24,000 nt of DNA. It comes from Ignavibacteria bacterium (GTDB lineage Bacteria; Bacteroidota; Ignavibacteria; Tepidaquicellales; Tepidaquicellaceae). Positions 1 through 21,163 of this stretch are shown one piece after another. The translations under genes and the position numbers were made by a program. The notes beneath the pieces are model-generated. The model did no database searches. It saw only the letters and a program-made list of their open reading frames with translations, and was not told the origin of the DNA. The stretch covers positions 306,177-330,176 of the forward strand of contig DATAJP010000002.1 in the NCBI GenBank assembly GCA_036262055.1, read 5' to 3'. Each line of letters opens with the position of its first letter. Position 1 is the first letter of the stretch.

Positions 1-426
1 ACCATCAACTTCAAAAAGCTCTTTGATTTCATTTGTGGAAATAACTGCTCCTGCCGTTTCAAATGATGTAGCAGGAACGCAAGACGATGCGCCGAAATAA
101 AACTTAAACGGCACCTGAATTCCGTTATTAATCATGTAACGAATGCCGTCAATTCCGAGAACATTTGCAATTTCATGCGGGTCAGAAACCGTTGCAACTG
201 TTCCGTGAATTACCGCAATGCGCGCAAACTCCGATGGAATAAGCATTGAGCTTTCAATATGAATATGCGCATCGATAAATCCCGGCATCAAATAAGTATC
301 GTACTTTGCTTTTTCATCGGAAATAATTTTTTCAATCTTTCCGTCTTTAACGTGAATTGTCGAAGAAGTTATCTTGCGGTTTACTATATCAACAACATTA
401 CCCGATATTGAAAATGTATCGTCCAT
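1..426 (-). CDS. ade: Adenine deaminase, N-terminal 142 codons (gene runs off the window start)
   Basis: Absent from the ORF track because the 3' end is off-window. My translation from the ATG at 426..424 stays open to position 1: [82 protein letters not shown]... [15 protein letters not shown] and DPHEIANV are metal-binding amidohydrolase motifs typical of adenine deaminase. Confidence 0.8.
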
Positions 427-470
427 TAGAGTTAATAAAATTAATTAGAGTTTAAATATTAAAAAAATTT

Positions 471-497
471 GTCATCATGAACGAAGTGAAAGATCTC
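471..497 (+). repeat. Degenerate GTCATC-headed palindromic repeat (GTCATCATGAACGAAGTGAAAGATCTC)
   Basis: Intergenic. It has the same GTCAY head as the other repeat families and resembles the GTCATCCTGAGCGAAGCGAAGGATC-type element I recall from FCB-group genomes. Single degenerate copy. Confidence 0.4.
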
Positions 498-532
498 ATT
501 CATTTGGGAATGCAGATTACTGCTCATTGATT

Positions 533-558
533 GGGATTCCCGCTTCCGCGGAAATGAC
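533..558 (-). repeat. REP-like palindromic element, family A (GTCATTTCCGCGGAAGCGGGAATCCC on minus strand)
   Basis: Plus strand reads GGGATTCCCGCTTCCGCGGAAATGAC. Near-identical to the copies at 3832, 6061, 11879, 11991 and 17289. Forms a GC stem with a 4-nt loop. Confidence 0.85.
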
Positions 559-571
559 TTCGGATTTGTAA

Positions 572-2020
572 TTACGTCTTATAAATAAAATGTTCTATTT
601 TTTTATAAAACTCATCTTTGGTGAACGGCTTTGCGAGATAGTCATCCATTCCTGATTCTATGCACCGTTCTTTGTCGGCTTTCATTGAGTATGCCGTTAT
701 GCCGATAATTGGCAAATGACCTCCGCTTTCTTTTTCGATTTCGCGTATGATTGAGGTTGCTTCAAGTCCGTCCATAACCGGCATCTGAACGTCCATTAAA
801 ATCATATAGAAGTTTTTCTTCGTTTCCATTGCATCGAAAATTTTCAAGCCGTTTTCAACAATCGTTACTTCATATCCTTTTCTTTCAAGAAGCTCTTTAA
901 CAAGCCGCTGGTTTACAAAATTATCTTCTGCAACAAGTATGCTTATTTTTCCCTCATGCTTTCCATCATAATTTTCACTTGAAATGTTTTCTGCATTTTC
1001 TGTAACATCAACACATTCAAATGGCAGTTCGCATTTCACGGTTGTGCCTTTACCAATTTCACTGTCTATATTAATTGTGCCTCCCATCGAGTCAAGAATA
1101 CATTTTGTAATCGCAAGCCCAAGACCTTTTCCTGTATAAGTCATTTTTCCAAGCGGGTCGTTATATGTAAACGCTTCAAAGATTTTTTCACGCATTTCAG
1201 GTGCAATTCCTATTCCAGTATCCTTAACCGTTATAAAATAATTTATCTTTCCATAATCAAGCTCGCTGTTGACGTTTATTTCAATTTTTCCTTTTTCGGT
1301 AAACCTGATTGCATTAGAAATAATGTTAATTATAACCTGATTAACTCTCAGCGGATCGCCAAGAACTTCTTTTGAAGGAAGATTATCACAGTTCGATTTT
1401 AACTCGATATTTTTTCTTCTTGCATCGGCTTCCATGACTTTGCAGGAATTTTTTATAAGATGCTCAAAATTGAAGTTCGTTTTTTCAAGCTTAAACTTTC
1501 CTGACTCGATCCTTGCCAAATCCATAATGTCGTTTACAATGGCTAAGAGTGTAGTTGAAGAAAATTTTATTATATCGAGATATTCTTTTTGTTCTTCACT
1601 CACCTTTGTTAATGAAAGCAGCTCGGTCATCCCCACAATACCGTTCATCGGTGTTCTTATTTCCTGGCTCATATTTGCAAGGAAGGAAGTTTTTGCGCGG
1701 TTAGCGGCTTCAGCTTTCACTTTTGCATCGAGTAAATCCGCATAAGAACTTTTTCCATCGGCAGATGAAGAAGATGAAGATATTGGTGGATTTATTTTTT
1801 TAAGAGCAAATAATTTATCGGCAATAAAATAAAAAATTACGGTTGTGGCTATGATGAATAAAAGACGCCTGTAAAGATCCACTTCAGAAAAAAATCCTGA
1901 AGTTGTCATGTTGGAAATTAGCAGCTTATCACAGAAAATGATTACAACGACACTTAATACGAAATATAATAATGTAAGTTTTAATATAGGATTTAATCGG
2001 GGTTTATCTGAAGATGCCAT
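572..2020 (-). CDS. Hybrid sensor histidine kinase / response regulator (HisKA-like, HATPase_c, REC) with a non-canonical H-box (Gln instead of His)
   Basis: 482-aa ORF. Two N-terminal hydrophobic helices (about res 14-31 and 52-70) are joined by only a ~20-aa loop. DHp motif is FLANMSQEIRTPMNG. N-box NIISNAIRFT, G1 DTGIGI and G2 GKGLGLAI are present. C-terminal receiver: ILVAEDN..LMDVQMPVMDG..GITAY..LAKPF. Confidence 0.9.
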   Translation of the reverse strand: MASSDKPRLNPILKLTLLYFVLSVVVIIFCDKLLISNMTTSGFFSEVDLYRRLLFIIATTVIFYFIADKLFALKKINPPISSSSSSADGKSSYADLLDAKVKAEAANRAKTSFLANMSQEIRTPMNGIVGMTELLSLTKVSEEQKEYLDIIKFSSTTLLAIVNDIMDLARIESGKFKLEKTNFNFEHLIKNSCKVMEADARRKNIELKSNCDNLPSKEVLGDPLRVNQVIINIISNAIRFTEKGKIEINVNSELDYGKINYFITVKDTGIGIAPEMREKIFEAFTYNDPLGKMTYTGKGLGLAITKCILDSMGGTINIDSEIGKGTTVKCELPFECVDVTENAENISSENYDGKHEGKISILVAEDNFVNQRLVKELLERKGYEVTIVENGLKIFDAMETKKNFYMILMDVQMPVMDGLEATSIIREIEKESGGHLPIIGITAYSMKADKERCIESGMDDYLAKPFTKDEFYKKIEHFIYKT

Positions 2021-2022
2021 AT

Positions 2023-2733
2023 TTAACTCTCTTTTTCAGGTTCTATTATTCTGAACCTGTACAATATGCTTTCGGTTATTTCTTTAGCGCGGGCTTCCGA
2101 GCTGTTGACTAAATTTAATGCAAAAATATATAAATTGTTACCATATTCTACGGTTCCAAGGCACCAATTCAATTTTTGCGCGTTATCACCGTTATTGCGA
2201 CATTCTCCATTTACGAAACTAATTTTTCTTTGGTTCACCGTATCTGAAACAAAATTTGTTTTAAAAACATTAAGCTGTTCTGCCGATAAATTAATTTCAT
2301 TCATATAAATTTTTCTGATGAAATTAATTTGTTCAACAGCAGAAATTTTTAAAACATCGCCGCATAAAAAATTACCGGGTGAAAAGCTCGTATCATTATT
2401 TCCGTAACTAAAATTTTTTATGATTTTCTTTTGCGCATTTATTGCCGAGGTATCCGTTGTTCCTAATGAATCATTTCTCGAATTGATTACATTCGAAAGA
2501 ACGGTTAGGTATTTATAAGTCCCTGCAGGACTTAATTCTTTATTGGCAAAAGCTTCATTATGATATATGTGATACTTATTATTAAAATCGTAGAGGATGA
2601 AACAGCCGGAATCGTTTTTGAAAAATTCAGTAAAGTCTGCCTGATATCCGCGTTTATCAGGGTTTTTATCGCAGGAACTAAGAAGAAAGAGCAGAACAAA
2701 CAACAAAAGAGGAAATGAAATTTTAGGTATCAA
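2023..2733 (-). CDS. Lipoprotein with a degenerate class-D beta-lactamase / BlaR1-MecR1 sensor-like domain
   Basis: 236-aa ORF with signal peptide and lipobox (LLSSC, Cys21). SPAGTYK aligns to PASTFK/STYK. FSYGNNDTS..LKISAVEQINFIRKIY aligns to my recollection of OXA-10 FSYGNQNISGG..LRISAVNQVEFLESLY. NWCLGTVEYGNNLYIFALNL aligns to [20 protein letters not shown]. Its stop is 2 nt from the kinase start. Confidence 0.8.
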   Translation of the reverse strand: MIPKISFPLLLFVLLFLLSSCDKNPDKRGYQADFTEFFKNDSGCFILYDFNNKYHIYHNEAFANKELSPAGTYKYLTVLSNVINSRNDSLGTTDTSAINAQKKIIKNFSYGNNDTSFSPGNFLCGDVLKISAVEQINFIRKIYMNEINLSAEQLNVFKTNFVSDTVNQRKISFVNGECRNNGDNAQKLNWCLGTVEYGNNLYIFALNLVNSSEARAKEITESILYRFRIIEPEKES

Positions 2734-2743
2734 ATTATATCTT

Positions 2744-3139
2744 TTATCCGTAATGTATCAATAAATGTTTTTCTATGATTTTATAAAAATCATCTTTATT
2801 AAACGGCTTGGATATATAATCATCCATGCCAATCTCAAAGCATTTTTGCCGGTCGCTTTCCATAGCAAAAGCTGTCACAGCAATAATTGGAACATATTTC
2901 CCGCTTGTAATTTCTTTTGCACGTATAAGTTTAGTCGCCTGATATCCGTCCATAACAGGCATCTGAATATCCATCAGAATAATATGAAACTTTTCATTTT
3001 CTAATGCATCAAGAACCTTCTGACCGTCATCAACAATCGTAATATTATACCCTTTATTGAGTAAAAGCTTACTGATTAATTTTTGATTGATATAATTATC
3101 TTCAGCGACTAAAACCTTGATAGTTTTAGGATTTACCAT
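2744..3139 (-). CDS. Stand-alone response-regulator receiver (CheY-like, no output domain)
   Basis: 131-aa ORF with motifs VLVAEDN, ILMDIQMPVMDG, AVTAF and ISKPF. Clearly paralogous to the receiver domain of the kinase at 572..2020. Its stop is 10 nt from the lipoprotein start. GGGGGT lies 8 nt upstream of the ATG. Confidence 0.9.
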   Translation of the reverse strand: MVNPKTIKVLVAEDNYINQKLISKLLLNKGYNITIVDDGQKVLDALENEKFHIILMDIQMPVMDGYQATKLIRAKEITSGKYVPIIAVTAFAMESDRQKCFEIGMDDYISKPFNKDDFYKIIEKHLLIHYG

Positions 3140-3240
3140 ACTTTTTTACCCCCGAACAAGCAAATTACTATTGTATCCATGTAATCTCAATATTCAAATA
3201 AATATAATATAAGTTAAAAAACTATAAATTTAGAAAAAAC

Positions 3241-3741
3241 TTATTTAAATTTAATTATTATTAATGAATTTATAATCGAAGCGATAAATCCGCCAAAAAT
3301 TGAATAAATAATTAATTGGAAAATCAAATAATAAGTATTGAATTCAAAATATAAATTATTGCGTATAAACGGAGAGTTTAATAACTGAATATCAAGCAAT
3401 GAATAAGTATAAATGTTGTTGATTAAGGTATTGGAAATATTTTTATTAAAATTATTATAATAAATATAAGTAAAAACAGTTGTAAGGATTATGAAACTGA
3501 ATGTGATTAGTATTCCGTATAATGCTGCATCTTTAAACTTCAAATTCTGATTTTTAAGCTCTCTGCTTTCGTTATTGAAAGAATCAATTCCTATATAGGT
3601 TGCAATAAAAAGAAACGGAAAAGAGAGATTATAAAACCCGAAGTTTGCTAAGCTTAGTTGAGTATTATATTGATTGAAAATCGACATCTCTATAAGAACA
3701 TAAATGATGAAAGCCAAGCCAGCAAATAATCCGTATTTCAA
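3241..3741 (-). CDS. Small polytopic membrane protein, unknown function (possibly DUF4199-like)
   Basis: 166-aa ORF with about 4 hydrophobic segments. Very AT-rich and rich in I/N/Y/F. No catalytic motif recognised. Confidence 0.55.
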   Translation of the reverse strand: MKYGLFAGLAFIIYVLIEMSIFNQYNTQLSLANFGFYNLSFPFLFIATYIGIDSFNNESRELKNQNLKFKDAALYGILITFSFIILTTVFTYIYYNNFNKNISNTLINNIYTYSLLDIQLLNSPFIRNNLYFEFNTYYLIFQLIIYSIFGGFIASIINSLIIIKFK

Positions 3742-3831
3742 AATTTATTTTTTAGAAATGACGCTTTGATAAATTTGTATATAAATATTCTGATTTAATA
3801 GAATCAGCCACATTATATTGTGTAAAAAGAA

Positions 3832-3857
3832 GTCATTCCCGCGAAGGCGGGAATCCC
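3832..3857 (+). repeat. REP-like palindromic element, family A (GTCATTCCCGCGAAGGCGGGAATCCC)
   Basis: Exact consensus copy in intergenic DNA. Stem ATTCCCGC/GCGGGAAT with loop GAAG. Confidence 0.9.
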
Positions 3858-3892
3858 AGTACTGTTTGCAAAATACTTTCAAGTCTCATAGT

Positions 3893-3923
3893 CCTCCCCT
3901 TAATTCCCCTCCAAAGGGGAAAA
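3893..3923 (+). repeat. C/G-tract palindromic repeat, family C (TCCTCCCCTTAATTCCCCTCCAAAGGGGAAA)
   Basis: Hairpin TTCCCCT-CCAA-AGGGGAA at 3904..3921. Its ends match the element embedded in the acylase gene at 20331..20390 (minus strand). Confidence 0.65.
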
Positions 3924-3987
3924 CATATACAAACTTATCGTAATCAGAAGGAATTAAAAAAAGTGTATAATTTATAATACTAATAAT

Positions 3988-6048
3988 TTAATACTCAACA
4001 AGCTTTCTGATTTGTTCTTCGAATCTTTTAATCGGGAAAAAGTTTTGCTCAAGCTCTAAGGCAAAAGGAACGGGTGTATCGAGTCCTGCTGAACGAACAA
4101 CCGGTGCATCGAGATACTCAAAACAATTTTCAGAAATAATTGCAGAAATTTCTCCGCCTATTCCGCCGGTTAAAGTATCTTCGTGAAGTATGATAACTTT
4201 TCCTGTTTTCTTAACCGAGTTAATAATTGTTTCTTTATCAAGAGGAATCAAAGTTCGCAAATCAATTATCTCACAATCTATGTCAGGATTTTTTTCTGCA
4301 AAGTTTTTTGCCCACTGAACACCAAGCCCGTAAGTTATGATTGAAACTTCCTCACCGGATTTAACAATGCTTGCTTTCCCGATTTCGATTGTATAATAAT
4401 CATCAGGAATATCTTCTTTCAAGCTCCTATATAATGCCTTATGCTCGAAGAACATAACAGGATTCGGATCTTCAAATGCGGCAATCATCATTCCTTTTGC
4501 ATCGTATGGATTTGATGGATAAAATATTTTTAATCCCGGTGTATGGAAAAACCACGCTTCGTTTGATTGCGAGTGAAAAGGTCCTGCGCCAACACCTGCG
4601 CCGCAGGGCATTCTGATAACGACGTCAGCATTCTGTCCCCAACGGTAATGAATCTTTGCAAGGTTATTCACGATTTGGTTGAATCCCGATGTAACAAAAT
4701 CAGCAAATTGCATCTCGACCATCGCCTTGTAGTGCTTAACCGATAAACCTAATGCTGCGCCGATGATTGCAGATTCACATAATGGGGTATTACGAACCCG
4801 GTCTTTGCCAAATTCTTTATAAAAATTCTCAGTAATTTTAAACACACCGCCGTACTCTGCAATATCCTGTCCCATTAAAATTAAATTATCATATTTTTCC
4901 ATTGCAAGCTTAAGACCATCAGAGATTGCATCGACAAATCTTTTTGATGACTTTGCACTCGAGCCGGGCTTAATAACAATCTGTTCATAAGGTTCATAAA
5001 TGTCTTTTAATTCATCTTCGGTGTTTGCAATAACATTTGGCGCGCTGAACGCAGCATCAAGCGCTGACTCAATTTCTTTTTTAAATTCTTTTCTTGTTTC
5101 TTTTACAAAGTCTTCGGTAATTACAGCTTCATTCAATAAAAAATTTTCATAGTTCGTTACAGGATCTTTCTTTCCCCATTCATCGAATAAATTTTTCGGA
5201 ACATATTTTGTTCCCGATGCTTCTTCATGTCCGCGCATTCTGAACGTCATGCACTCAAGCAAAACAGGTTTTTGTTTTTTCTTGATTGACTTGGAAAGAT
5301 TTTTCATCGTTTCATAAACAGTCAGAATATTATTTCCGTCAATTTGCATTCCTTCCATTCCGTAACCTTCAGCTTTTGTGTATAAGCTTGTGCATTTATA
5401 CTGCTCGTTCACGGGAGTGGATAAGCCGTAACAATTATTTTCAATTATAAATACAACAGGTAAATCCCATACCGCAGCAACGTTTAACGCTTCGTGAAAA
5501 TCACCTTCGCTCGTTCCGCCGTCACCGGTGAACACAGTCGTAATCTTCGCTTTATCCTTTTTTGCTTTCACATTCAAAGAACACGCAAGTGCAATACCGT
5601 CTGCAATTGCAAGCTGGGGACCAAGATGTGAAATCATGCCGACAATATGATGCTCATTCGTTCCGAAGTGAAACGAACGCTCGCGGGCTTTTGAGAACCC
5701 GTCATACTTTCCCTGAAGCTGCATAAATAATTTATCAAGAGGAAGCTTGCGCGAAGTGAAAATACCAAGGTTTCTATGCATCGGCAAAATATATTCATCT
5801 GATTCCATTGCTTCGGCAACGCCGACAGAAATTGCTTCCTGCCCGATTCCCGAAAACCATTTGCTAACCTTTCCGAGACGAAGATTCAGTAACATCTTCT
5901 CCTCAATCATTCTCGGCAATAAAATTGCTTTGTATAATCTGATTAGAGTATCGTCATCAAAATTCTTTCTGTCGAATTTTATGAAAACTTCTCTTTTATT
6001 TTTTTCTTTATTTTTTTCTTCTGTGTCAGTAATTGAAAGCTGTGCCAT
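3988..6048 (-). CDS. Fused 2-oxoacid (branched-chain/pyruvate family) dehydrogenase E1 component, alpha+beta subunits in one polypeptide
   Basis: 686-aa ORF. The N-terminal half carries the TPP motif GDGGTSEGDFHEALNVAAVWDLPVVFIIENN. The C-terminal half is transketolase-like E1-beta (MGQDIAEYGGVFKIT.., CESAIIGAALGLS, FADFV). Confidence 0.9.
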   Translation of the reverse strand: MAQLSITDTEEKNKEKNKREVFIKFDRKNFDDDTLIRLYKAILLPRMIEEKMLLNLRLGKVSKWFSGIGQEAISVGVAEAMESDEYILPMHRNLGIFTSRKLPLDKLFMQLQGKYDGFSKARERSFHFGTNEHHIVGMISHLGPQLAIADGIALACSLNVKAKKDKAKITTVFTGDGGTSEGDFHEALNVAAVWDLPVVFIIENNCYGLSTPVNEQYKCTSLYTKAEGYGMEGMQIDGNNILTVYETMKNLSKSIKKKQKPVLLECMTFRMRGHEEASGTKYVPKNLFDEWGKKDPVTNYENFLLNEAVITEDFVKETRKEFKKEIESALDAAFSAPNVIANTEDELKDIYEPYEQIVIKPGSSAKSSKRFVDAISDGLKLAMEKYDNLILMGQDIAEYGGVFKITENFYKEFGKDRVRNTPLCESAIIGAALGLSVKHYKAMVEMQFADFVTSGFNQIVNNLAKIHYRWGQNADVVIRMPCGAGVGAGPFHSQSNEAWFFHTPGLKIFYPSNPYDAKGMMIAAFEDPNPVMFFEHKALYRSLKEDIPDDYYTIEIGKASIVKSGEEVSIITYGLGVQWAKNFAEKNPDIDCEIIDLRTLIPLDKETIINSVKKTGKVIILHEDTLTGGIGGEISAIISENCFEYLDAPVVRSAGLDTPVPFALELEQNFFPIKRFEEQIRKLVEY

Positions 6049-6060
6049 ATTCCCTTTGAA

Positions 6061-6086
6061 GTCATTCCCGCGCAGGCGGGAATCCC
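6061..6086 (+). repeat. REP-like palindromic element, family A (GTCATTCCCGCGCAGGCGGGAATCCC)
   Basis: One loop substitution relative to consensus. Lies 13 nt upstream (in transcript sense) of the E1 start codon. Confidence 0.9.
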
Positions 6087-6900: not shown

Positions 6901-8241
6901 TTATGCCTGCTGAAGCCGGTTTGCCTTATACCAATTTATGTTTCGCAGGAAATACATTATCACCGCAAGCACAACAAATATTCCGATGCTTCCGATTAAT
7001 AATGAGTAATCTTCGTTAAGCAATAGAATATATAAGAACCCATACAGTGCAGTCAGTGCTAAGCTGATGAAGAATGCAAACTTTTTGCTTTTGAGCACGC
7101 TTAGGGAATAAAGCCCTATAAGTAAGATTATGCTTGCGCTCGAAATGAGATACGCTAAGTTAAATTGCAGATGCTCTGATATTGATAGCAAAAGCAGATA
7201 AAAAACAACCAGAGAGAATCCGACGAGCGTATATTGAATCGGGTGAATTCTTTTCTTGCCGAGATATTCCACGAAAAAGAAAATAATGAAAGTCAGCCCG
7301 ATGAACATCAACACATATTTTACAGCGCGCATTACTTCAGTGTAACCATTCAGCGGAACAAAGAAATTAAGTCCGAATGCAGATGATGCAATTTCTACTT
7401 TATTGTTTTTTCTTATCCAGCTTTGCTGGTAGTTTCTATTCAGGTCAAGAACTTTCCAGCTTGCTTCAAAGCTGGTATCTGTAATTTTTCTTTCTTCGGG
7501 CAGGAAATTTCCTGTAAAGCTCGGGTCTCCCCAGTTTGATGTGATGTTCACGTTCGTTTCTTTCCCGAGCGGAAGAAACGTCAAGCTCTCACTGCCGTTT
7601 AGAGTAAGGTCAATTTCAAAATTATTTATTTCAAAAGGAATAACATTCACACTTGAGCTTACGCCTGCATCAAAAACATCTGCCGATATCAATCCTGCAG
7701 AAAACTGCGTCTGCATATCATTCCATTTCAAGCGAATATTATCTTTTATTCCTTTCATGTCGCTGATACCGAAAAGAACATATGCTTCATTCCATTTGAG
7801 ACGTGTGTTGTTTGTATCAATGTCGGGAATATGGCTAAGGTCAAACTTGCCGGTAACTTTATTGTGAGTTGTGTATAAAGTAAATTTATATATACCTCTG
7901 TTTCTGAGCTCCGAATCTACTTTACCGTCGATACTCAGGTTCAAAGGCAAAATTTTCACAATGTCTTCGTAAGTATTAATTTTCCCGTTTGTATCTTTGA
8001 TTGTTTTCACATAAGGAATGTAAAGAACGGGACCGCCGATATTTTGCTTGCCGCCCCAGTTTGATGAAACTTCCGTGAATGCCGCATCTTTGACTTCCTG
8101 TCTTTCTTCTATAAGCGAGCCAATAAACGCCGATGGAATTAAAAGAAAAAATATTAATCCGACAATAACAATAATTTTAAATGCTAACGAATTTGCAAAT
8201 GTCCGGACAAAATGACTTCCGCCACTGTCTTGGTTTTCCAT
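6901..8241 (-). CDS. creD: Cell-envelope integrity inner-membrane protein CreD
   Basis: NVNITSNWGDPSFTGNFLPEERKITDTSFEASWKV and RIHPIQYTLVGFSLVVFYLLLLSISEH align with E. coli CreD as I recall it (LTSNWPHPSFLGDFLP.., RLHPMQYLLVGLSLVMFYLLLLALSEH). One N-terminal and about 5 C-terminal TM helices. I prefer the ATG at 8241 (AAGGAG 6 nt upstream) over the track TTG at 8268. Confidence 0.9.
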   Translation of the reverse strand: MENQDSGGSHFVRTFANSLAFKIIVIVGLIFFLLIPSAFIGSLIEERQEVKDAAFTEVSSNWGGKQNIGGPVLYIPYVKTIKDTNGKINTYEDIVKILPLNLSIDGKVDSELRNRGIYKFTLYTTHNKVTGKFDLSHIPDIDTNNTRLKWNEAYVLFGISDMKGIKDNIRLKWNDMQTQFSAGLISADVFDAGVSSSVNVIPFEINNFEIDLTLNGSESLTFLPLGKETNVNITSNWGDPSFTGNFLPEERKITDTSFEASWKVLDLNRNYQQSWIRKNNKVEIASSAFGLNFFVPLNGYTEVMRAVKYVLMFIGLTFIIFFFVEYLGKKRIHPIQYTLVGFSLVVFYLLLLSISEHLQFNLAYLISSASIILLIGLYSLSVLKSKKFAFFISLALTALYGFLYILLLNEDYSLLIGSIGIFVVLAVIMYFLRNINWYKANRLQQA

Positions 8242-8242
8242 T

Positions 8243-8521
8243 TTATTCTCCTTCTGGAAAAATATCAATATCGTGAGATATTGATTTTAAGTTTGTTAAA
8301 AATAGTTTTGAGAAATTATTCTTGGATGAATTGATTTGGGAAAAGAATGGTGAAACAATCGGGAATATTATAAATATTATTGCAAAGACAATGAATTGAG
8401 CTCCGTTATGACTAACGGAATGAATGTTGAAAATTGAAATGAGGTTGCGGCAAATAATGAATGTTAGAGGATTACCTGCGCCGGGGAGTTCCAGGTCAGG
8501 ATAATCATTAACTGAGTTCAT
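8243..8521 (-). CDS. Hypothetical small membrane protein, possibly co-translated with creD
   Basis: 92-aa ORF with one hydrophobic segment (FIVFAIIFIIFPIVSPFF). Its TAA stop is 1 nt from the creD ATG and overlaps the creD RBS. No homology recognised. Confidence 0.4.
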   Translation of the reverse strand: MNSVNDYPDLELPGAGNPLTFIICRNLISIFNIHSVSHNGAQFIVFAIIFIIFPIVSPFFSQINSSKNNFSKLFLTNLKSISHDIDIFPEGE

Positions 8522-9015: not shown

Positions 9016-11142
9016 TTATTTTATTAACATCATTCTTTTACTTTCGGAAAAGTTATTTGTTTCCAATCTGTAGAAATATATTCCGCTTGAAAGTGAAGTC
9101 GCATCAAATTCAACATTATAACTTCCGGGTGATAAATTTTCATTTACTAATGTTCTAACCAATTTACCTGTTACATCATACACGGTTAGTTTTGCAAATC
9201 CGAAATTCACAATCCGAAATTCGATATTGGTGGTCGGATTAAATGGATTGGGATAATTCTGCATCAATTTATATTCAGCAGGAATTTCACTTGTAACAGG
9301 AGTAATTCCAACAAGAGGTGTGAGCGAACGAATCATTGTTCCTGAATTTCCCGTTGCCAAACCATAACCGTCACCTGAAATTGTAACAGTATTAAAAGTA
9401 TTAATCGTAATCCTTGTTTCCTGAGTCCAGTTTCTTCCGCCATCAACTGTTTTATAAACATAACCGCTTGCACCGCCTGCATAACCTGAAAGCGCGTTTC
9501 GCATTTTCACATCCCAAACAGTAGAAGCAGGCTGCGTGGTTGCCGGTGTCCATGTTGTACCACCGTTAGATGTCCATAGCACAAGTCCGCTTGAACCGCC
9601 TGCAACACCATTATTCTCATCAACCATAGATAATCCGTATAAACCGAGTGAAGACCCATCCCACTGCAAAGTCCAGCTTGTTCCGCCGTTTGTGGTTTTA
9701 TAAATAACTTCTCCGACACCGTCAACCCAGCCGGTGTTTGCATTCACAAAATCAACTCCGTATATTAAAACATTTCCGGGGATGTTTATGTTAGTCCAGT
9801 TCACTCCGCCGTTTGTTGTTTTCAATACCTGACTGCTCTGCCCTGCAACAAATCCCGTGTTAGCATCCAAAAAGTCTAAATCCAATAATTCATTTGTAGC
9901 TGTTCCTCCAAGATCAATCCAGTTTGTTCCGCCGTTTGTTGTCTTTAAAATTTTTCCCGAGTATCCGCAGATGTATGCATTGTTCGCGTCAATCATCTGT
10001 ACTTGTTCAAGCTGAGTAGTTACGGGTGAAGTTTGTGTTGTCCATGAAATTCCCGCGTTTGTTGTTTTGCTTATAAAACCATTTGCAGCAACTGCATAAC
10101 CTGTGTTTATATTCAAGAAACTCATTCCCTGAATTGATGCAGTTGAGAAGCTCTTGCTTACTTCAGTCCAGTTTGCGCCTGCGTTTGTCGTTCTAAAAAC
10201 TTTTCCGTCTGCGCCTGCAGCATAAGCAGTATTGTTACCATCAAACTTAACGTTATACAATGTTCCGGTGAATCCAGGGGCTGTTGTTTCGCTCCATGTT
10301 GCGCCGTCATTTGTCGAACGAATGATTGTTCCGCTTGCGCCAACTGCTATTACGTTACCAAGATAATCCCTGTCGATTGACCAAAGCAAAACAGAACCTC
10401 CCGGATTATATGATACAGTCCAGTTAACTCCGCTGTTTGTGGTTATGGCAATTCTTTTTCCTGAACCGCAAATCATACCGTTCGATGTTCCGATAAATCT
10501 AACTCCGCGATAATCTGTGCTTGTTGGGAAAATCTGCGGATGATTCACCCACGTGCTTCCGCCGTCAGTCGAACGCAAGACAGAGTTTGCATTTCCGACA
10601 ACGTGAACAAGAAGCGAACCCGGAGCGAAAACTCCATACAATGTTGAAGTTGTAATTCCCGGGTTTGTTTGCGAAACCCAGTTCACTCCGCCGTTAGTTG
10701 TTCTCATTATGAAACCATTAAACCCTACGCACCATCCTGTGAGATGGTTTGCAAAATGAACTCCGTATTTTGTTGTATCGGGCGAGCCGGCAAGATGAAA
10801 CCAGTTAAATCCGCCGTTAGTCGTCTTGAAAAGCATTTCCGTAAATGCTCCGGCTGCATATCCCGTGTTTGCATCAACAAAATTTATTGCGCGGATTATA
10901 CCGTCACCAACTGGAACGGTCGTCCAATTAGCACCTGCATTCGTGCTGATAACTGCATCACCGATAAAATTTGTTATGCCGACAATTTTATTCGGAGCAG
11001 GAGTGGCAATGCTGAAAATATCTTCCGTCGTCGGATACGGGTTTATGAAAGTCCACTGAGCATTAGAATTTGCAATTAACAATGTGCAATTAGCAATAAG
11101 AAGAAACAAAAATAGTTTTAGTTTTGTAAGAATAGGATTCAT
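9016..11142 (-). CDS. Secreted multi-blade BNR/Asp-box (Ycf48-like) beta-propeller protein with T9SS C-terminal sorting domain
   Basis: 708-aa ORF with a signal peptide. There are 13 copies of (S/T)T(N/D)xGxxW (e.g. TTNGGFNW, STDGGSTW, TTNAGANW) spaced about 40-45 aa apart. The C-terminus QNYPNPFNPTTNIEFRI...GIYFYRLETNNFSESKRMMLIK is a typical T9SS type-A CTD. Confidence 0.85.
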   Translation of the reverse strand: MNPILTKLKLFLFLLIANCTLLIANSNAQWTFINPYPTTEDIFSIATPAPNKIVGITNFIGDAVISTNAGANWTTVPVGDGIIRAINFVDANTGYAAGAFTEMLFKTTNGGFNWFHLAGSPDTTKYGVHFANHLTGWCVGFNGFIMRTTNGGVNWVSQTNPGITTSTLYGVFAPGSLLVHVVGNANSVLRSTDGGSTWVNHPQIFPTSTDYRGVRFIGTSNGMICGSGKRIAITTNSGVNWTVSYNPGGSVLLWSIDRDYLGNVIAVGASGTIIRSTNDGATWSETTAPGFTGTLYNVKFDGNNTAYAAGADGKVFRTTNAGANWTEVSKSFSTASIQGMSFLNINTGYAVAANGFISKTTNAGISWTTQTSPVTTQLEQVQMIDANNAYICGYSGKILKTTNGGTNWIDLGGTATNELLDLDFLDANTGFVAGQSSQVLKTTNGGVNWTNINIPGNVLIYGVDFVNANTGWVDGVGEVIYKTTNGGTSWTLQWDGSSLGLYGLSMVDENNGVAGGSSGLVLWTSNGGTTWTPATTQPASTVWDVKMRNALSGYAGGASGYVYKTVDGGRNWTQETRITINTFNTVTISGDGYGLATGNSGTMIRSLTPLVGITPVTSEIPAEYKLMQNYPNPFNPTTNIEFRIVNFGFAKLTVYDVTGKLVRTLVNENLSPGSYNVEFDATSLSSGIYFYRLETNNFSESKRMMLIK

Positions 11143-11261
11143 ATGTGTTAGATTATCGGGGATTTTATTGAAAAATATGATTAATTCCAGTATTTAATAT
11201 TAATTTAATTTAAGAAATATTGTTTAAAATAAAAACGTTATCTGAAAATACCGAAATTTGA

Positions 11262-11828
11262 ATGGATTCAATTAAAGACAATTTTTTAGAGGCAAAGAAA
11301 GTTTTAGATGATTTTATTTTTGACCCTGAGAATTTTGAACGGGTGAAAAAAGCCGGTGATTTAATGGTTACAGCCGTGAAATCGGGAAACAAAATTATAT
11401 CCTGCGGAAACGGCGGTTCGATGTGCGATGCAATGCACTTCGCAGAAGAAATGACAGGAAGATTCAGAGACGAAAGAAAAGCACTTCCTGCAATCGCAAT
11501 ATCTGATGTCTCGCATATTACCTGCACAGGAAATGATTACGGTTTTGATTTTATTTTTTCAAGATATGTTGAGGCGCTGGGAAACAAGGGTGACGTTCTT
11601 CTAGCACTCAGCACAAGCGGAAACTCAAAAAATATATTGAATGCAATTGATTCGGCAAAGACGAAAGGAATGAAAGTTGTCGGACTTACAGGTAAAGACG
11701 GAGGTAAGATGGCTGAGTTTTGCGATATTGAAATTCGCGCGCCGAAATCGAATTACTCAGACCGAGTGCAGGAGATACATATAAAGGTAATTCATTCGCT
11801 AATCGATTATATAGAGAAGAATTTATAA
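11262..11828 (+). CDS. gmhA: D-sedoheptulose-7-phosphate isomerase (SIS domain)
   Basis: 188 aa. [34 protein letters not shown] closely matches the GmhA core (GNGGSxCDAxHFAEELTGRYR..PAIAISD). Confidence 0.9.
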
Positions 11829-11878: not shown

Positions 11879-12014
11879 GTCATTCCCGCGAAGGCGGGAA
11901 TCTAATCAAAAATGGTTTTTCGTTCTAAGAGTATATACTCAAAGATATTTTAGAACGTAAAATTTTTTGAATAATGAATCTTAATAGTTTGGATTCGCGC
12001 CTTCGCGGAATGAC
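11879..12014. repeat. MITE-like unit: two inverted family A elements flanking 88 bp
   Basis: GTCATTCCCGCGAAGGCGGGAATC (11879..11902) is paired with GGATTCGCGCCTTCGCGGAATGAC (11991..12014). The interior contains its own inverted repeat CGTTCTAA..TTAGAACG. No coding capacity. Confidence 0.7.
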
Positions 12015-16456: not shown

Positions 16457-17335
16457 TCATAATTTTAATCCCAATCCCAGAGTTATTCTTCGTTTTCTTT
16501 CATCATCTCTTTCTTCTTGCTCAAACTTTGCATTCAGCGATGACCTTTCTTTTTCATCAAGATAAAGAGTTGCCGTTCCTTCGTATTTATATCCATAATT
16601 TACGCTCGGATTTATTTCCCGTTCGATTCTTCCTGTTAAATCAAACTGAATATAATACCTTTTAACAGTAAAGCTCAATGATGCAAATGAATCATAAGTT
16701 TTAAAATCATCTTTTTTCTTAGGTCCCGTTTGCCTTTGATAGTCGAATCCGATGGTTGGATTTAATCCATACACCCAGCGGTTATCCTTCCCGTTATATT
16801 TGAATTTAACTTTCGACGCGTCCATTATAGGAATTGCAAAGTTAGGAAACGTCGGATTGAAAGAAAGTTTTGCTTCAAATAATTCTCTCTTTGAATAAAA
16901 ATCTTTCCAGAAAGAAACTTCCGGTTCTATTTTCCCCGCACTGTTTTTTGTTCTGTATAAATAATATTTAAATGTAAGTCCGCCTTTTACTTTTTCTTTT
17001 CTGTCTTTGCCTCCGCTTATGTATTCAAATTGAACAAACGGAGCAATTGCAAAGTCTGTGTAATCGAGTTTCTTATAAAGAATCGCAGCATCTATTTTAT
17101 AAATTGCATCCTCGTCATCTTTTTTTGAATATGAAAAAAGCGCGGGTTTTGTTGATTCGGAATTGTCATCAAATGCCCTTCTCAGTTCAATATATTCCTG
17201 AACAATATCAATGATGCTTTTTGTGGAATCATTATCCTGAGATTTTGCTTCGAAAGGAAAAATTAAAACAATAAATAATATTAAGGAAGTCATTCCCGCG
17301 AAGGCGGGAATCCCAATACCATATGTTTTATTCAT
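16457..17335 (-). CDS. Putative outer-membrane beta-barrel protein, unknown function (start uncertain: 17335 or 17293)
   Basis: 292-aa ORF with alternating-hydrophobic strands and many Y/F/K residues. It ends 4 nt before the pgi start. The ATG at 17335 overlaps the purT stop (ATGA). The first 15 codons read through a family A repeat ([11 protein letters not shown]). The alternative ATG at 17293 lies inside the repeat. Confidence 0.55.
17289..17314 (+). repeat. REP-like palindromic element, family A (GTCATTCCCGCGAAGGCGGGAATCCC)
   Basis: Exact consensus copy, located between the purT stop and the hydrophobic signal-like segment of the next ORF. Confidence 0.9.
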
Positions 17336-18511: not shown

Positions 18512-21163
18512 TTATGGTTCTAATTTTAAAACTTTAAGCTCTTCTTTTAGAAGCTCATTGAAATCGATAGTGATTGATGTATATTCTCCGTTCAGCCATA
18601 ACCTGGATTGGTCTCTGTAGTTAGGATGCAATGGCTGTCCCGATTGTCCTGTCGTTATTATAGTAAGTAAATTTTTATTTTTTGATAAGTCAACAATCAT
18701 CCTCATCGACGCTCCCAGAGTAAAGTTAAAATTTCCGCTTTCAAGTGGTTTTGAAAAATTATACTCGGCATTATTAACAGTGACCCCGCTTCCGCCCATT
18801 TCATAAGGACCGATGTTCAAGATTCCGCCAAGCGCCGGCACCTGTCCCAGTGGATGCTGCATAAGAATTTTATGATAATTTCCCCAGAGCCAATTGTTAT
18901 AATCATCCGTTCCGGAAATTTCTTTCAGTTCATCTATTCCGTCAATAAAGCTTTTACGCAAAATGAAATTTCTGTTTGTTGTTTCGTTCTGGCCATCAGA
19001 AAAAAGCCACGAGTTATTTTTTGTAAGAAGCTTGACAGTATTTCTAACAGGAACATTCTGAATAAAAACATAATTATCGTAAACATCTTTGCCAAGCAAA
19101 TTCATATATAAGTTTTTATAAAGCTGAATTTCAAACGCAGCAAAAATTGTCGCTGCAGGGCTGAATGCCGTCATCTGATAATCCCATTTTTTCAACAGCT
19201 CATAATATTTTCTGTAATCCATCGGAATGCCGACCGAATCCCTGAATGCTTCAAACAAATATTCGCAGTATTGCTTTGCAAGAAGATTCATAAAATCGGT
19301 TTGGATAAGCTTGAACTCATCTGCAGAAAAGCTTCCGCGTGATTTCAGAATCTCGTCAATACGCATTGCGCGGTAAGGCGGCTCAAATAAGTCAGAGATA
19401 TAATATTTATAATCTTTTAACGGCGGGTTGTTTGCTGTAACTATATAATCTTTCTGAGGATTGTATTCATTCGGAAGCTCATCAAAATGAACATATCCCG
19501 TAAAATCAACTGTTCCCATCGAAGTATAAGTCGGGATATAACCGTTATCTGCGCCTGTTACATTATTACGCAAAGAAATTTTCCCTGCTACCTGATAACC
19601 GATATTGCCTGAAGTATCCGCATACACAAAATTGGAGGGTGGAACCCCGAATAAAGAAAGACCGTTTCTGAATTCAGTCCAGCTTTTAGCGTAGTTGACT
19701 TTGTAAATTGCTTCAAGCTCATCTGAAAAATCAAAACCTGTCCATCGCAGAACAATAATTTTATCAGGTGAGGTTCTGAGCTCGCGCTTTCTTCCGAAAC
19801 CTGAAACATTAAGATTTGAAATAACAGGACCCAAGCGCGTTGTGTAACATGTAAAATCATAAGAATCATTCTCGCCTTTTACTTTTATGCTTTCAACTAA
19901 GCTGTCAAGCGGATATGTTGCATCTTTGATTTTATACTTTGTTCTGTTTGATGAATCCAGCTGCAAAATATAAAAATCCGAGTCATCGCTCATCAAGCTG
20001 GTCATTCCCCAACTGATAACATTGTTAGAGCCGATTACAACCGCCGGCGTTCCCGGCAGACTGTATCCTGCAACGCTGCTTTTATACTGGTCGTTATATA
20101 AATGAATTTCATACCACTTCGAAGGAACTGACAAACTCAAATGAGGGTCATTAGCGAGAATCGGTTTTCCATTTTCTGTTTTCTTGCCATTGACAACCCA
20201 TGCATTGCTTCCGATGTGCGAACCCTCGATGCCGAAATAATTTCTATAATTTTTAACCGTATTAAAAAAATCTGCGCCTTCAACTGCAAGGGATTTATAA
20301 TTATTTTCAATTACATTATAAGAAATATTATTTCCCCCTTTGGAGGCGGAACGTCCCGACTTGTCGGGAGGCAATACAAGGGGAGGATATTGAGTAAAAG
20401 AATTTCCATCACGTTGACCCTGAAACAAGTTCAGGGTGACATCCTTTTTTTCATTTTTAGTTTTTACTGAATCTTTCTTTTCTGTTTCTTTGTTAGTATG
20501 AATTACAAACGGTCCTGTTTCGGGATAAATTGGAAAAAGCTCTTTTGCTCTTTCAAGTCCGAGCTTATTCACAACTTCACCGAACATATAATCAGCATAC
20601 CATGAAAGGTTTAAATCCCATCCCATCAAACGGACTATCATCAAACTATGCTCGGGCTTCCATTCATCGGGTTTATAGTTAAGCACGTCGAATTCAAGCG
20701 GAAGATTTTTTATGTGAGTCTGAATAAAATAATTAACACCTTTTGTGTAGCTGTCGAGAATCGATTTTGTTTTTGGTGAGAGCTGGTTATAAAATGAGTA
20801 AGCTGATTTTCCGATGCCGATTGTTCTGAACAAAACATCATAATCAAGAACGTCCCTTCCGTAAATTTCCGAAAGACGTCCTTCAGCAACACGCCGCATA
20901 ATGTCCATCTGCCATAACCTGTCCTGCGCGTGAGTATATCCCTGCGCAAAATACATATCGCGTTCATTGCGTGCATAAATATGCGCAACTCCGAAATTAT
21001 TTCTTATGACGTTGACAGTATCGGTGATTCCTTCGACTTTTACTGTTCCCGTTTCTTCATAAAATGACCTTTGCGTTAAGTCGCTGAAGAGAACTCCAAG
21101 CGTTATGAAAACCGCTATCAATAATATCAAAAGACCGATTATGGTTTTTAAGACAGGATGCAA
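18512..21163 (-). CDS. Penicillin-acylase-family (S45, Ntn-hydrolase) amidase, membrane-anchored; could equally be an AHL or other acyl-amide acylase
   Basis: 883 aa with an N-terminal TM helix. Alpha-subunit motifs [17 protein letters not shown]. The predicted beta-subunit N-terminal nucleophile is in [25 protein letters not shown] (Ser319). TTG start. Confidence 0.9.
20327..20443 (-). repeat. Two palindromic repeat elements embedded in frame in the acylase ORF (codons 241-279)
   Basis: On the minus strand, GTCACCCTGAACTTGTTTCAGGGTCAACG (20411..20441) encodes [66 protein letters not shown] (20331..20388) shares its ends with the element at 3893..3923 and contains the perfect palindrome TCCCGACAAGTCGGGA. 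Confidence 0.75.

Follow-up and report, generated by a model that had tools for sequence, protein, structure and literature searches.

An invariant glutamine at the phospho-acceptor position defines a family of hybrid histidine-kinase homologues, apparently from Ignavibacteria-type bacteria

We analyzed a 24,000-nt stretch of DNA from an Ignavibacteria bacterium (assembly GCA_036262055.1, contig DATAJP010000002.1, positions 306,177 to 330,176; hereafter the window), which carries a three-gene operon on its minus strand. A stand-alone receiver comes first, followed after a 10-nt gap by a lipoprotein and, 2 nt further on, by a membrane-anchored sensor of the hybrid histidine-kinase type that holds glutamine where such kinases carry their phospho-acceptor histidine (Table 1). 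From its N terminus the sensor comprises two transmembrane (TM) helices, a HisKA domain (the dimerization and histidine phosphotransfer domain, DHp; profile positions 1-66), a HATPase_c domain (the catalytic and ATP-binding domain, CA) and a receiver. The three domains score 72, 91 and 91 bits, respectively, all above the Pfam gathering cut-offs, and their union in one protein is the architecture of a hybrid kinase. The AlphaFold model (mean predicted local distance difference test [pLDDT] score 79, predicted template-modeling score 0.46) shows canonical domains with a disordered ATP lid, and joins the two N-terminal helices by a loop of ~8 residues, predicting a protein that is essentially without a periplasmic sensor domain.

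On the minus strand at 1700..1640, the acceptor codon reads CAG, between agc and gaa, in a segment that translates to FLANMSQEIRTPMNG. In phmmer alignments the resulting Q119 faces the phospho-acceptor His of the solved hybrid kinases 7p8e (FLATVSHEIRTPMNG) and 6qrj (LATLSHEFRTPLNG). The original prediction, made from the letters of the sequence, had pointed to this codon and to the lack of another His in the surrounding helix, and both observations are borne out. His occurs at just four positions of the protein (187, 355, 435 and 477), and since none falls in the DHp helices there is no displaced H-box. We also considered an alternative acceptor His in the DHp domain and rejected it: none is found there, and the sole His conserved across the family, H435, lies in the receiver. 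The protein thus lacks the phospho-acceptor His that a competent HisKA hybrid kinase has in its H-box. The neighboring residues of the HisKA E/DxxT/N motif are kept, with E120 at the position following the acceptor (H+1) and T123 at H+4, in the order Q-E120-I-R-T123.

Table 1. Features of the Gln-type sensor and its operon. Positions are those of the window; residue numbers refer to the protein concerned.
Feature	Position	Strand	Evidence or remark
Gln-type hybrid histidine-kinase homologue, 482 aa	572..2020	-	open reading frame (ORF) list, Pfam domains, 117 Gln-bearing homologues
N-terminal membrane anchor, predicted helices 11-37 and 46-74	1799..1990	-	AlphaFold secondary structure, sequence
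DHp (HisKA) domain, residues 109-174	1499..1696	-	Pfam, family alignment
H-box FLANMSQEIRTPMNG, residues 113-127	1640..1684	-	sequence and translation
CAG codon, Q119, phospho-acceptor position	1664..1666	-	sequence, translation, alignment to solved kinases
CA (HATPase_c) domain, residues 221-334	1019..1360	-	Pfam, family alignment
Degenerate F-box/ATP lid FEAFTYNDPLGKMTYTGKGLG, residues 281-301	1118..1180	-	column comparison, AlphaFold pLDDT
Fused receiver (Response_reg), residues 361-475	596..940	-	D366, D410 (codon 793..791), T442, K464
Lipoprotein (lipobox LLSSC), class D beta-lactamase/BlaR1 sensor-domain homologue	2023..2733	-	NCBIfam, synteny
Stand-alone receiver, 131 aa, first operon gene	2744..3139	-	Pfam Response_reg 1.8e-29
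GC-rich palindrome TTCCCGCTTCCGCGGAAA	537..554	.	18 nt past the kinase stop codon; one of five window copies

The glutamine is a family trait. We searched 5.8 billion proteins and examined the best 120 matches, which come from NCBI, JGI, ENA and Logan assemblies and range from 94% down to ~45% identity. Where the source organism is named, these are metagenome-assembled genomes of Ignavibacteria, Kapaibacterium or Ignavibacteriota, plus one "Bacteroidetes bacterium". A MAFFT alignment places Gln in the Q119 column in 117 of the 120; two matches, the most distant and equipped with extra PAS domains, have His, and two are truncated, the categories overlapping in this count. For a column-by-column comparison of the core we set 115 Gln proteins against 139 His-type relatives, and the column is uniform in both: Gln in 115/115 family members and His in 139/139 His-type hybrid kinases. 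At the DNA level, CAG encodes the residue in 9/9 loci from independent assemblies (eight distinct sequences, L001 being identical to L002), and synonymous variation among these loci affects the codons around it, those for Ser, Glu, Ile, Arg, Thr and Pro. The pattern N-M-S-Q-E-I-R-[T/I]-P-M further retrieved 44 loci from JGI metagenome contigs, of which ~30 are low-GC family members.

For comparison outside the family, a background scan of reference genomes with the generic receiver pattern ILMD[IV]QMP, which is not a taxonomic census and covers 79 unrelated His-type hybrid kinases plus one family member, found His in 87 of 88 H-boxes, the lone Gln belonging to that family member from Kapaibacterium (L005). 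Representatives of 50%-identity clusters served as the outgroup; in this list, which is dominated by long multi-receiver kinases and in which P0020, P0080 and P0084 represent the family, the representatives outside the family have His in 233 cases, Tyr in two and Gln in none. Even when the H/Q column was left out, a neighbor-joining tree of the DHp-CA-receiver core split off the 115 Gln proteins with no His protein inside, on a stem branch of 0.26 substitutions per site; their mean distance to the nearest His-type proteins is ~1.0, compared with 0.5 within the family. The simplest history is that His gave way to Gln once, where the clade begins, and that the Gln was strictly retained from then on.

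These data decide what kind of change Q119 represents. The original prediction had allowed for a sequencing error or a recent inactivating mutation, here a strain-specific CAY-to-CAG lesion in an otherwise normal kinase; a single transversion separates the two codons, and isolated H-to-Q hybrid kinases with intact lids do occur in unrelated high-GC contigs (L099, L101, L104, L107 and L132). But 115-117 relatives from four assembly sources, down to 45% identity, carry the same Gln, nine loci share its codon, and the substitution is accompanied by a monophyletic clade, a decayed ATP lid and an altered pattern of domain rates (see below). The idea of an error or lesion is refuted by this conservation, and we give it practically no chance. 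The other outcome anticipated by the original prediction, that conservation of Gln in orthologues would reveal a functional pseudo-kinase lineage, is the one observed: with the acceptor His absent and its absence conserved among orthologues, we are almost certain that the family is a pseudo-kinase lineage maintained by selection. By homology the protein is a HisKA hybrid kinase, but for want of an acceptor His it falls, functionally, within the wide class of pseudo-histidine kinases, outside each of the named families. The uniformity of the CAG codon in loci of 29-40% GC had raised the separate thought of recoding or of a constraint at the nucleotide level. We rejected it because CAG is the preferred Gln codon in the ORFs of the window (120 CAG versus 57 CAA) and because other invariant Gln sites are equally one-sided (Q144, 8/9 CAA; Q228, 8/9 CAG).

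Loss of the acceptor is accompanied by decay in the ATP-binding domain. The original prediction had described the N, G1, F and G2 boxes and the receiver as intact, and this stands for most of them: the Mg2+-binding Asn of the N-box (N236), the G1 box D267xGxG271 and the G2 glycines G297, G299 and G301 are invariant in the Gln family, and the receiver residues are complete. It does not stand for the F-box and ATP lid, where the window protein reads IFEAFTYNDPLGKMTYTGKGLGL in place of the F..PF.Q.D.S..R..GGTGLGL of His-type relatives, with Q286, R293 and G296 replaced by Y, M and T. Five lid residues that are 89-98% conserved in the 139 His-type kinases (F284, Q286, D288, R293 and G296) are lost or variable in the Gln family, F284 and D288 only in part, and the N-box K239 is relaxed to 75% conservation. 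AlphaFold assigns pLDDT values below 50 to residues 285-288 and 293-297 of this lid.

The rates at which the domains evolve have shifted as well. Mean pairwise identity within the Gln family is 81% for DHp, 48% for CA and 80% for the receiver, compared with 52%, 49% and 31% in the His-type set. When DHp identity is matched at 0.6-0.8, the Gln family shows a CA identity of 0.36-0.40 versus 0.54-0.59 in His-type kinases, and a receiver identity of 0.70-0.75 versus 0.32-0.39; this contrast is semi-quantitative, because the His-type set consists of diverse 50%-identity cluster representatives picked for likeness to the query and is not a matched orthologous family. CA is thus the fastest-evolving domain of the Gln family, and DHp and receiver are tied as the most conserved. 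Residues that are invariant only in the Gln family map to DHp helix alpha2 and to much of the receiver, with almost none in CA. By our reading of the numbering, the receiver segments concerned would include alpha1, beta4-alpha4 and beta5-alpha5, which are partner-docking surfaces. The chemistry of the receiver itself is complete, with the acidic pair E365/D366 and D410, T442 and K464 each present in 100% of the family. These comparisons show that selection preserves the DHp helical bundle and a fused receiver with full phospho-Asp chemistry.

Several side observations concern individual positions of this core. At H+4 (T123; 1652..1654, minus strand), Thr is present in 139/139 His-type relatives, and the Gln family has Thr in 65% and Ile in 34% of its members; E120, R122 and P124 around it are each 100% conserved. 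The Ile variant (QEIRIP) is found mainly in a group of sensors linked to ccoI, described below, and the orthologue group of the window protein keeps Thr; constraint on H+4 loosened or shifted once the His had gone. In the receiver, 100% of the Gln family has H435 (716..718, minus strand; GGHLPIIGITA), at a position where His-type relatives vary (D, N, R, T and other residues); our reading of the numbering would place it in the alpha3-beta4 loop.

Gln H-boxes also turn up outside the family, in about a dozen unrelated and mostly high-GC contigs, and there they come with fully canonical lids, for example FKPFEQADGSITRKYGGTGLGL. Isolated NMSQEIRTPM kinases of this kind (L096, L099, L100, L101, L104, L107, L116, L117, L131 and L132) span a GC content of 0.42-0.65, use CAA or CAG, and may each stem from a recent, independent H-to-Q change, a polymorphism or an error. 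They serve as an internal control for how such a young substitution, polymorphism or error appears, and the contrast between their canonical lids and the decayed lid of the window's family agrees with kinase function having been lost long ago in the latter. Three further Gln H-boxes (L102, L119 and L125) lie in ORFs of 73-134 aa on high-GC contigs and may be broken genes or pseudogenes. A substitution like that of DivL is seen in two proteins with tandem kinase cores, P0195 (residue 736) and P0211 (residue 1016): their first H-box is a normal MSHEIRTP, and the second carries Tyr (MSYEIRTP and MSYEIRSP).

The neighborhood of the sensor is conserved along with it. The operon order recurs in orthologues at 52-60% identity (L001, L002, L003 and L088), as well as in L090 and L114. 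Upstream of it are genes for a ferritin, a DUF4199 protein and a fused E1 dehydrogenase, and downstream is one for an adenine deaminase. The stand-alone receiver is 55% identical to the fused one. The lipoprotein of the window matches the NCBIfam families bla_class_D_main and blaR1_generic (E ~1e-21, 77 bits) over its C-terminal half only. Its orthologues in L003 (4115-4900) and L088 (5091-5882) are full-length, score ~241-243 bits against bla_class_D_main, and show the motifs STFK (SPCSTFKIPN), S-x-V (SxVWYYQ) and KTG (KTGS). The window protein is shortened and reads SPAGTYKYL, with the catalytic Ser changed to Gly (GTYK), and the L001 protein (4300-4989) is likewise shortened, with QTYI at the catalytic Ser motif. 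By sequence, the window lipoprotein would be a pseudo-enzyme paired with a pseudo-kinase, possibly serving as a beta-lactam or muropeptide input.

The E1 neighbor bears on whether the protein might still be a kinase, one that phosphorylates a different acceptor: the His of a partner, as in the CheA3/CheA4 split kinase, or a Ser, Thr or Tyr, as in PDK/BCKDK and plant ETR2-type receptors, with the E1 dehydrogenase as a speculative target. Invariance of N236, of the adenine-binding D267 and of the G1 and G2 glycines across the family speaks for such a kinase, and a fused E1 alpha/beta dehydrogenase gene does lie three genes upstream in every locus of the window's orthologue group (group A). However, the lid residues of His-type relatives are lost, CA evolves fastest and has almost no family-specific invariant residues, paralogues elsewhere have no E1 neighbor, and the E1 synteny amounts to no more than general conservation of gene order. 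We therefore consider a kinase with another acceptor very improbable.

The Gln core is not confined to this operon. A second group of Gln sensors (P0052, P0096, P0101 and most metagenome matches) lies directly upstream of ccoI/fixI, ccoS, a Cys/Met pyridoxal phosphate-dependent enzyme and ccoNO, with no stand-alone receiver beside the sensor. Examples are L004:5001-6446, L086:6001-7452, L087:6001-7767, where the sensor overlaps the start of ccoI, and ~20 metagenome loci (among them L097, L098, L105, L113, L124 and L129), this setting next to ccoI (a Cu P-type ATPase) and ccoS/fixS being the commonest in metagenomes. The arrangement suggests a tie to assembly of the cbb3 oxidase, or else to the sensing of O2 or Cu. 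In a third group the sensors have PAS domains. Gln-type sensors thus occur in at least three contexts (beta-lactamase-like lipoprotein, cbb3-oxidase assembly genes and PAS domains), and the same core has been combined with different inputs and neighborhoods.

Paralogues with different inputs (two TM helices or PAS) and contexts that share near-identical DHp and receiver domains look as if they converge on one partner. This would suit a modulator reminiscent of RetS from Pseudomonas aeruginosa, a hybrid sensor whose own kinase activity is unused and which modulates the pathway of another kinase; the Gln protein would then heterodimerize with, or dock onto, a canonical hybrid kinase and block its autophosphorylation or siphon off its phosphoryl groups. 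The RetS kinase cores (6dk7 and 6dk8, E ~1e-36) are among the closest solved relatives of the window protein, and L001 encodes a canonical PAS hybrid kinase two genes downstream. The H-box of that neighbor is of a different type, however (FLANMSHELRTPLNSILILS), and no His-type kinase with a closely matching DHp was found, the nearest ones standing at the mean distance given above. In RetS itself the acceptor His is retained, two receivers are present along with a periplasmic sensor domain, and the target is GacS; no GacS-like partner was identified for the Gln protein. Taken together, these points make a RetS-like role decidedly unlikely, less so than a kinase with another acceptor.

The reading we favor, tentatively and at about even chances or slightly below, is that the protein is a kinase-dead sensor acting as a regulated phosphate sink or phosphatase. 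Its first element is the loss of kinase activity: we infer that the protein cannot autophosphorylate, because it has no acceptor His, its ATP lid is decayed, and the same substitution abolishes autophosphorylation in CqsS of Vibrio cholerae. CqsS H194Q does not autophosphorylate, yet it still dephosphorylates LuxU~P, and it needs the receiver residue Asp618 for this but neither His194 nor the catalytic site (PMC3310172). The parallel is close in that the substitution is identical and sits in the same kind of H-box of a HisKA-CA-receiver hybrid. It differs in that CqsS H194Q was made in the laboratory from an active kinase, has its CA domain intact and acts on the histidine phosphotransfer (HPt) protein LuxU, whereas the Gln protein is natural, fixed in a clade, followed by lid decay and without an identified HPt partner.

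The second element is the removal of phosphate. The His is dispensable for much of this activity in CrdS, where H371A keeps most of the phosphatase activity and Asn or Thr at H+4 is essential; CrdA~P decays with a half-life of 2.6 min with H371A, 0.7 min with the wild type and 53 min without enzyme (PMC3510030). In HK853, the water for hydrolysis is held by His260 together with Thr264 (PMC5727384). Phosphatase-only sensors are also a recognized class, exemplified by BumS of Campylobacter jejuni, which lacks the residues for autophosphorylation and only removes phosphate, its partner BumR receiving phosphate from outside the pair (PMC12469816, PMC11796366). BumS differs from the Gln protein in being cytoplasmic and non-hybrid with a DNA-binding partner; the Gln protein has a fused receiver and a single-domain one in its operon, with no output domain identified.

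In the mechanism we propose, the fused receiver would take phosphoryl groups from an external donor, candidates being an HPt protein, a canonical hybrid kinase, the pathway of the operon's stand-alone receiver, or acetyl phosphate. The phosphoryl group would then be hydrolyzed, probably with the aid of the E120/T123 surface of DHp, where the Gln amide would replace His in positioning water. The net role would be that of a signal-regulated phosphate sink or phosphatase and not of a phosphate source. The beta-lactamase/BlaR1-like lipoprotein, presumably co-transcribed, is from its synteny a probable accessory component or the periplasmic input, since the periplasmic loop of the sensor is tiny, and the stand-alone receiver would be a likely substrate or partner.

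Several observations weigh against a sink or phosphatase. The E/DxxT/N motif beside the acceptor position is present in the window protein but is not universal in the clade: the H+4 Thr, essential for HisKA phosphatases, is Ile in the 34% of the family noted above, so a canonical DHp phosphatase cannot be a function shared family-wide. E120 is 100% conserved, though in CrdS the Glu is needed for kinase and not for phosphatase activity (PMC3510030). The invariant N-box Asn and the G1 and G2 glycines suggest a continuing importance of nucleotide binding. Neither an HPt protein nor a phosphodonor turned up in the window or related loci, and every statement about the catalysis of the Gln protein is one that we infer.

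Part of this evidence would fit a non-catalytic role just as described for DivL of Caulobacter, to which the original prediction had compared the protein. DivL is a HisKA/HATPase_c protein whose acceptor His is likewise naturally and conservedly replaced; it binds ATP weakly, binds DivK~P through its receiver-docking face, and senses DivK~P while being neither kinase nor phosphatase (PMC4211667). A DivL-like sensor or scaffold in the window would bind its own or the stand-alone receiver in phosphorylated form through DHp and signal allosterically. The lost acceptor, degraded lid and hyper-conserved DHp docking surface parallel DivL, H+4 Thr is dispensable (Ile) in one third of the family, and the same operon encodes a stand-alone receiver. 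On the other hand, the phospho-chemistry residues of the fused receiver are 100% conserved and the receiver is tied with DHp as the most conserved domain, which points to real phosphoryl turnover; E120 is kept throughout and T123 in the window's orthologue group; the ccoI/ccoS-linked group has no adjoining stand-alone receiver; and the residue is an invariant Gln and not Tyr. The analogy is a loose one. The conserved replacement of the acceptor is common to both proteins, but DivL has Tyr, PAS domains and no receiver, lacks phosphatase activity and is alphaproteobacterial, whereas here we find Gln, two TM helices and a receiver, and the match to the DivL structure (PDB 4q20, E 1.5e-27) reflects a generic likeness only, residue and architecture falling outside the DivL family. 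We think a DivL-like role unlikely, though it is the strongest of the alternatives; E120, T123 and the hyper-conserved canonical receiver fit a phosphatase or phospho-sink better.

PsmA of Streptomyces provides a further comparison: this kinase-like hybrid is conserved, has no His in its H-box and keeps the receiver Asp. There, the His position varies (E, D, Q, V or Y), neither the E/DxxT/N motif nor the ATP motifs remain, and the receiver Asp can be dispensed with (PMC12963549). The Gln family keeps not only the Gln invariant but also E120, the core ATP motifs and the receiver, a pattern that indicates retained phospho-chemistry. In the open-access full text that we searched, no Gln-type kinase family and no Ignavibacteria two-component signaling at comparable detail was described.

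A bolder version of the sink or phosphatase reading gives the Gln itself a catalytic part. Gln positions water in CheZ and in the DxxxQ motif of HisKA_3. By analogy, the invariant Gln would be a catalytic amide that places the hydrolytic water on the receiver acyl-phosphate, making the acceptor position a dedicated phosphatase site. If this were true, and with several Gln sensors per genome, the family would constitute clade-wide "negative receptors" that drain one shared phosphorelay and in this way integrate signals. We consider this combined proposal unlikely.

Other features of the window may bear on the operon or its input. An 18-nt GC-rich palindrome, TTCCCGCGAAGGCGGGAA, occurs five times in the window (537-554, 3836-3853, 6065-6082, 11883-11900 and 17293-17310) versus a chance expectation of 0.03 copies. 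Four of them sit shortly past the ends of genes, the fifth (17293-17310) is inside the ORF at 16457..17335, and the copy at 3835-3854 was also called as a terminator-like hairpin. The element is terminator-like or repetitive extragenic palindromic (REP)-like, and the copy after the sensor gene may mark the operon end; a promoter and terminator scan of 300..4100 gave nothing above background. The window also encodes a CreD inner-membrane protein (6901..8268, minus strand) and an 883-aa penicillin-amidase-family protein (18512..21163, minus strand) in addition to the beta-lactamase-like lipoprotein. CreD is a member of the beta-lactam-responsive CreBC/BlrAB regulon in other bacteria, and it is found near the orthologous operon in L003 too (10353-11392). 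These associations may be coincidence. Finally, a 708-aa BNR/Ycf48-like repeat protein (9016..11142, minus strand) ends in a type IX secretion C-terminal sorting domain (Por_Secre_tail), which we take to fit an origin in the Fibrobacteres-Chlorobi-Bacteroidetes group that includes Ignavibacteriota.

Taken together, our findings describe a Gln family that is real, conserved and biologically meaningful, though not categorically new. Histidine-kinase homologues are normally annotated as kinases, or here as "response regulator", without a check of the acceptor residue, and in this case a clade comprising well over a hundred 90%-identity clusters has carried Gln at that position since its origin, while selection moved from the ATP-binding domain to DHp and the receiver. 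For the fate of hybrid kinases after the loss of autophosphorylation, the family offers a natural experiment, and it may serve as a natural model of phosphate-draining hybrid sensors. Alongside BumS, RetS, DivL and PsmA, it is further evidence of a recurrent design in which "kinases" remove phosphate or are non-catalytic, and the lipoprotein of its operon raises the possibility that a periplasmic BlaR1/OXA-like protein is linked to two-component signaling outside Firmicutes.

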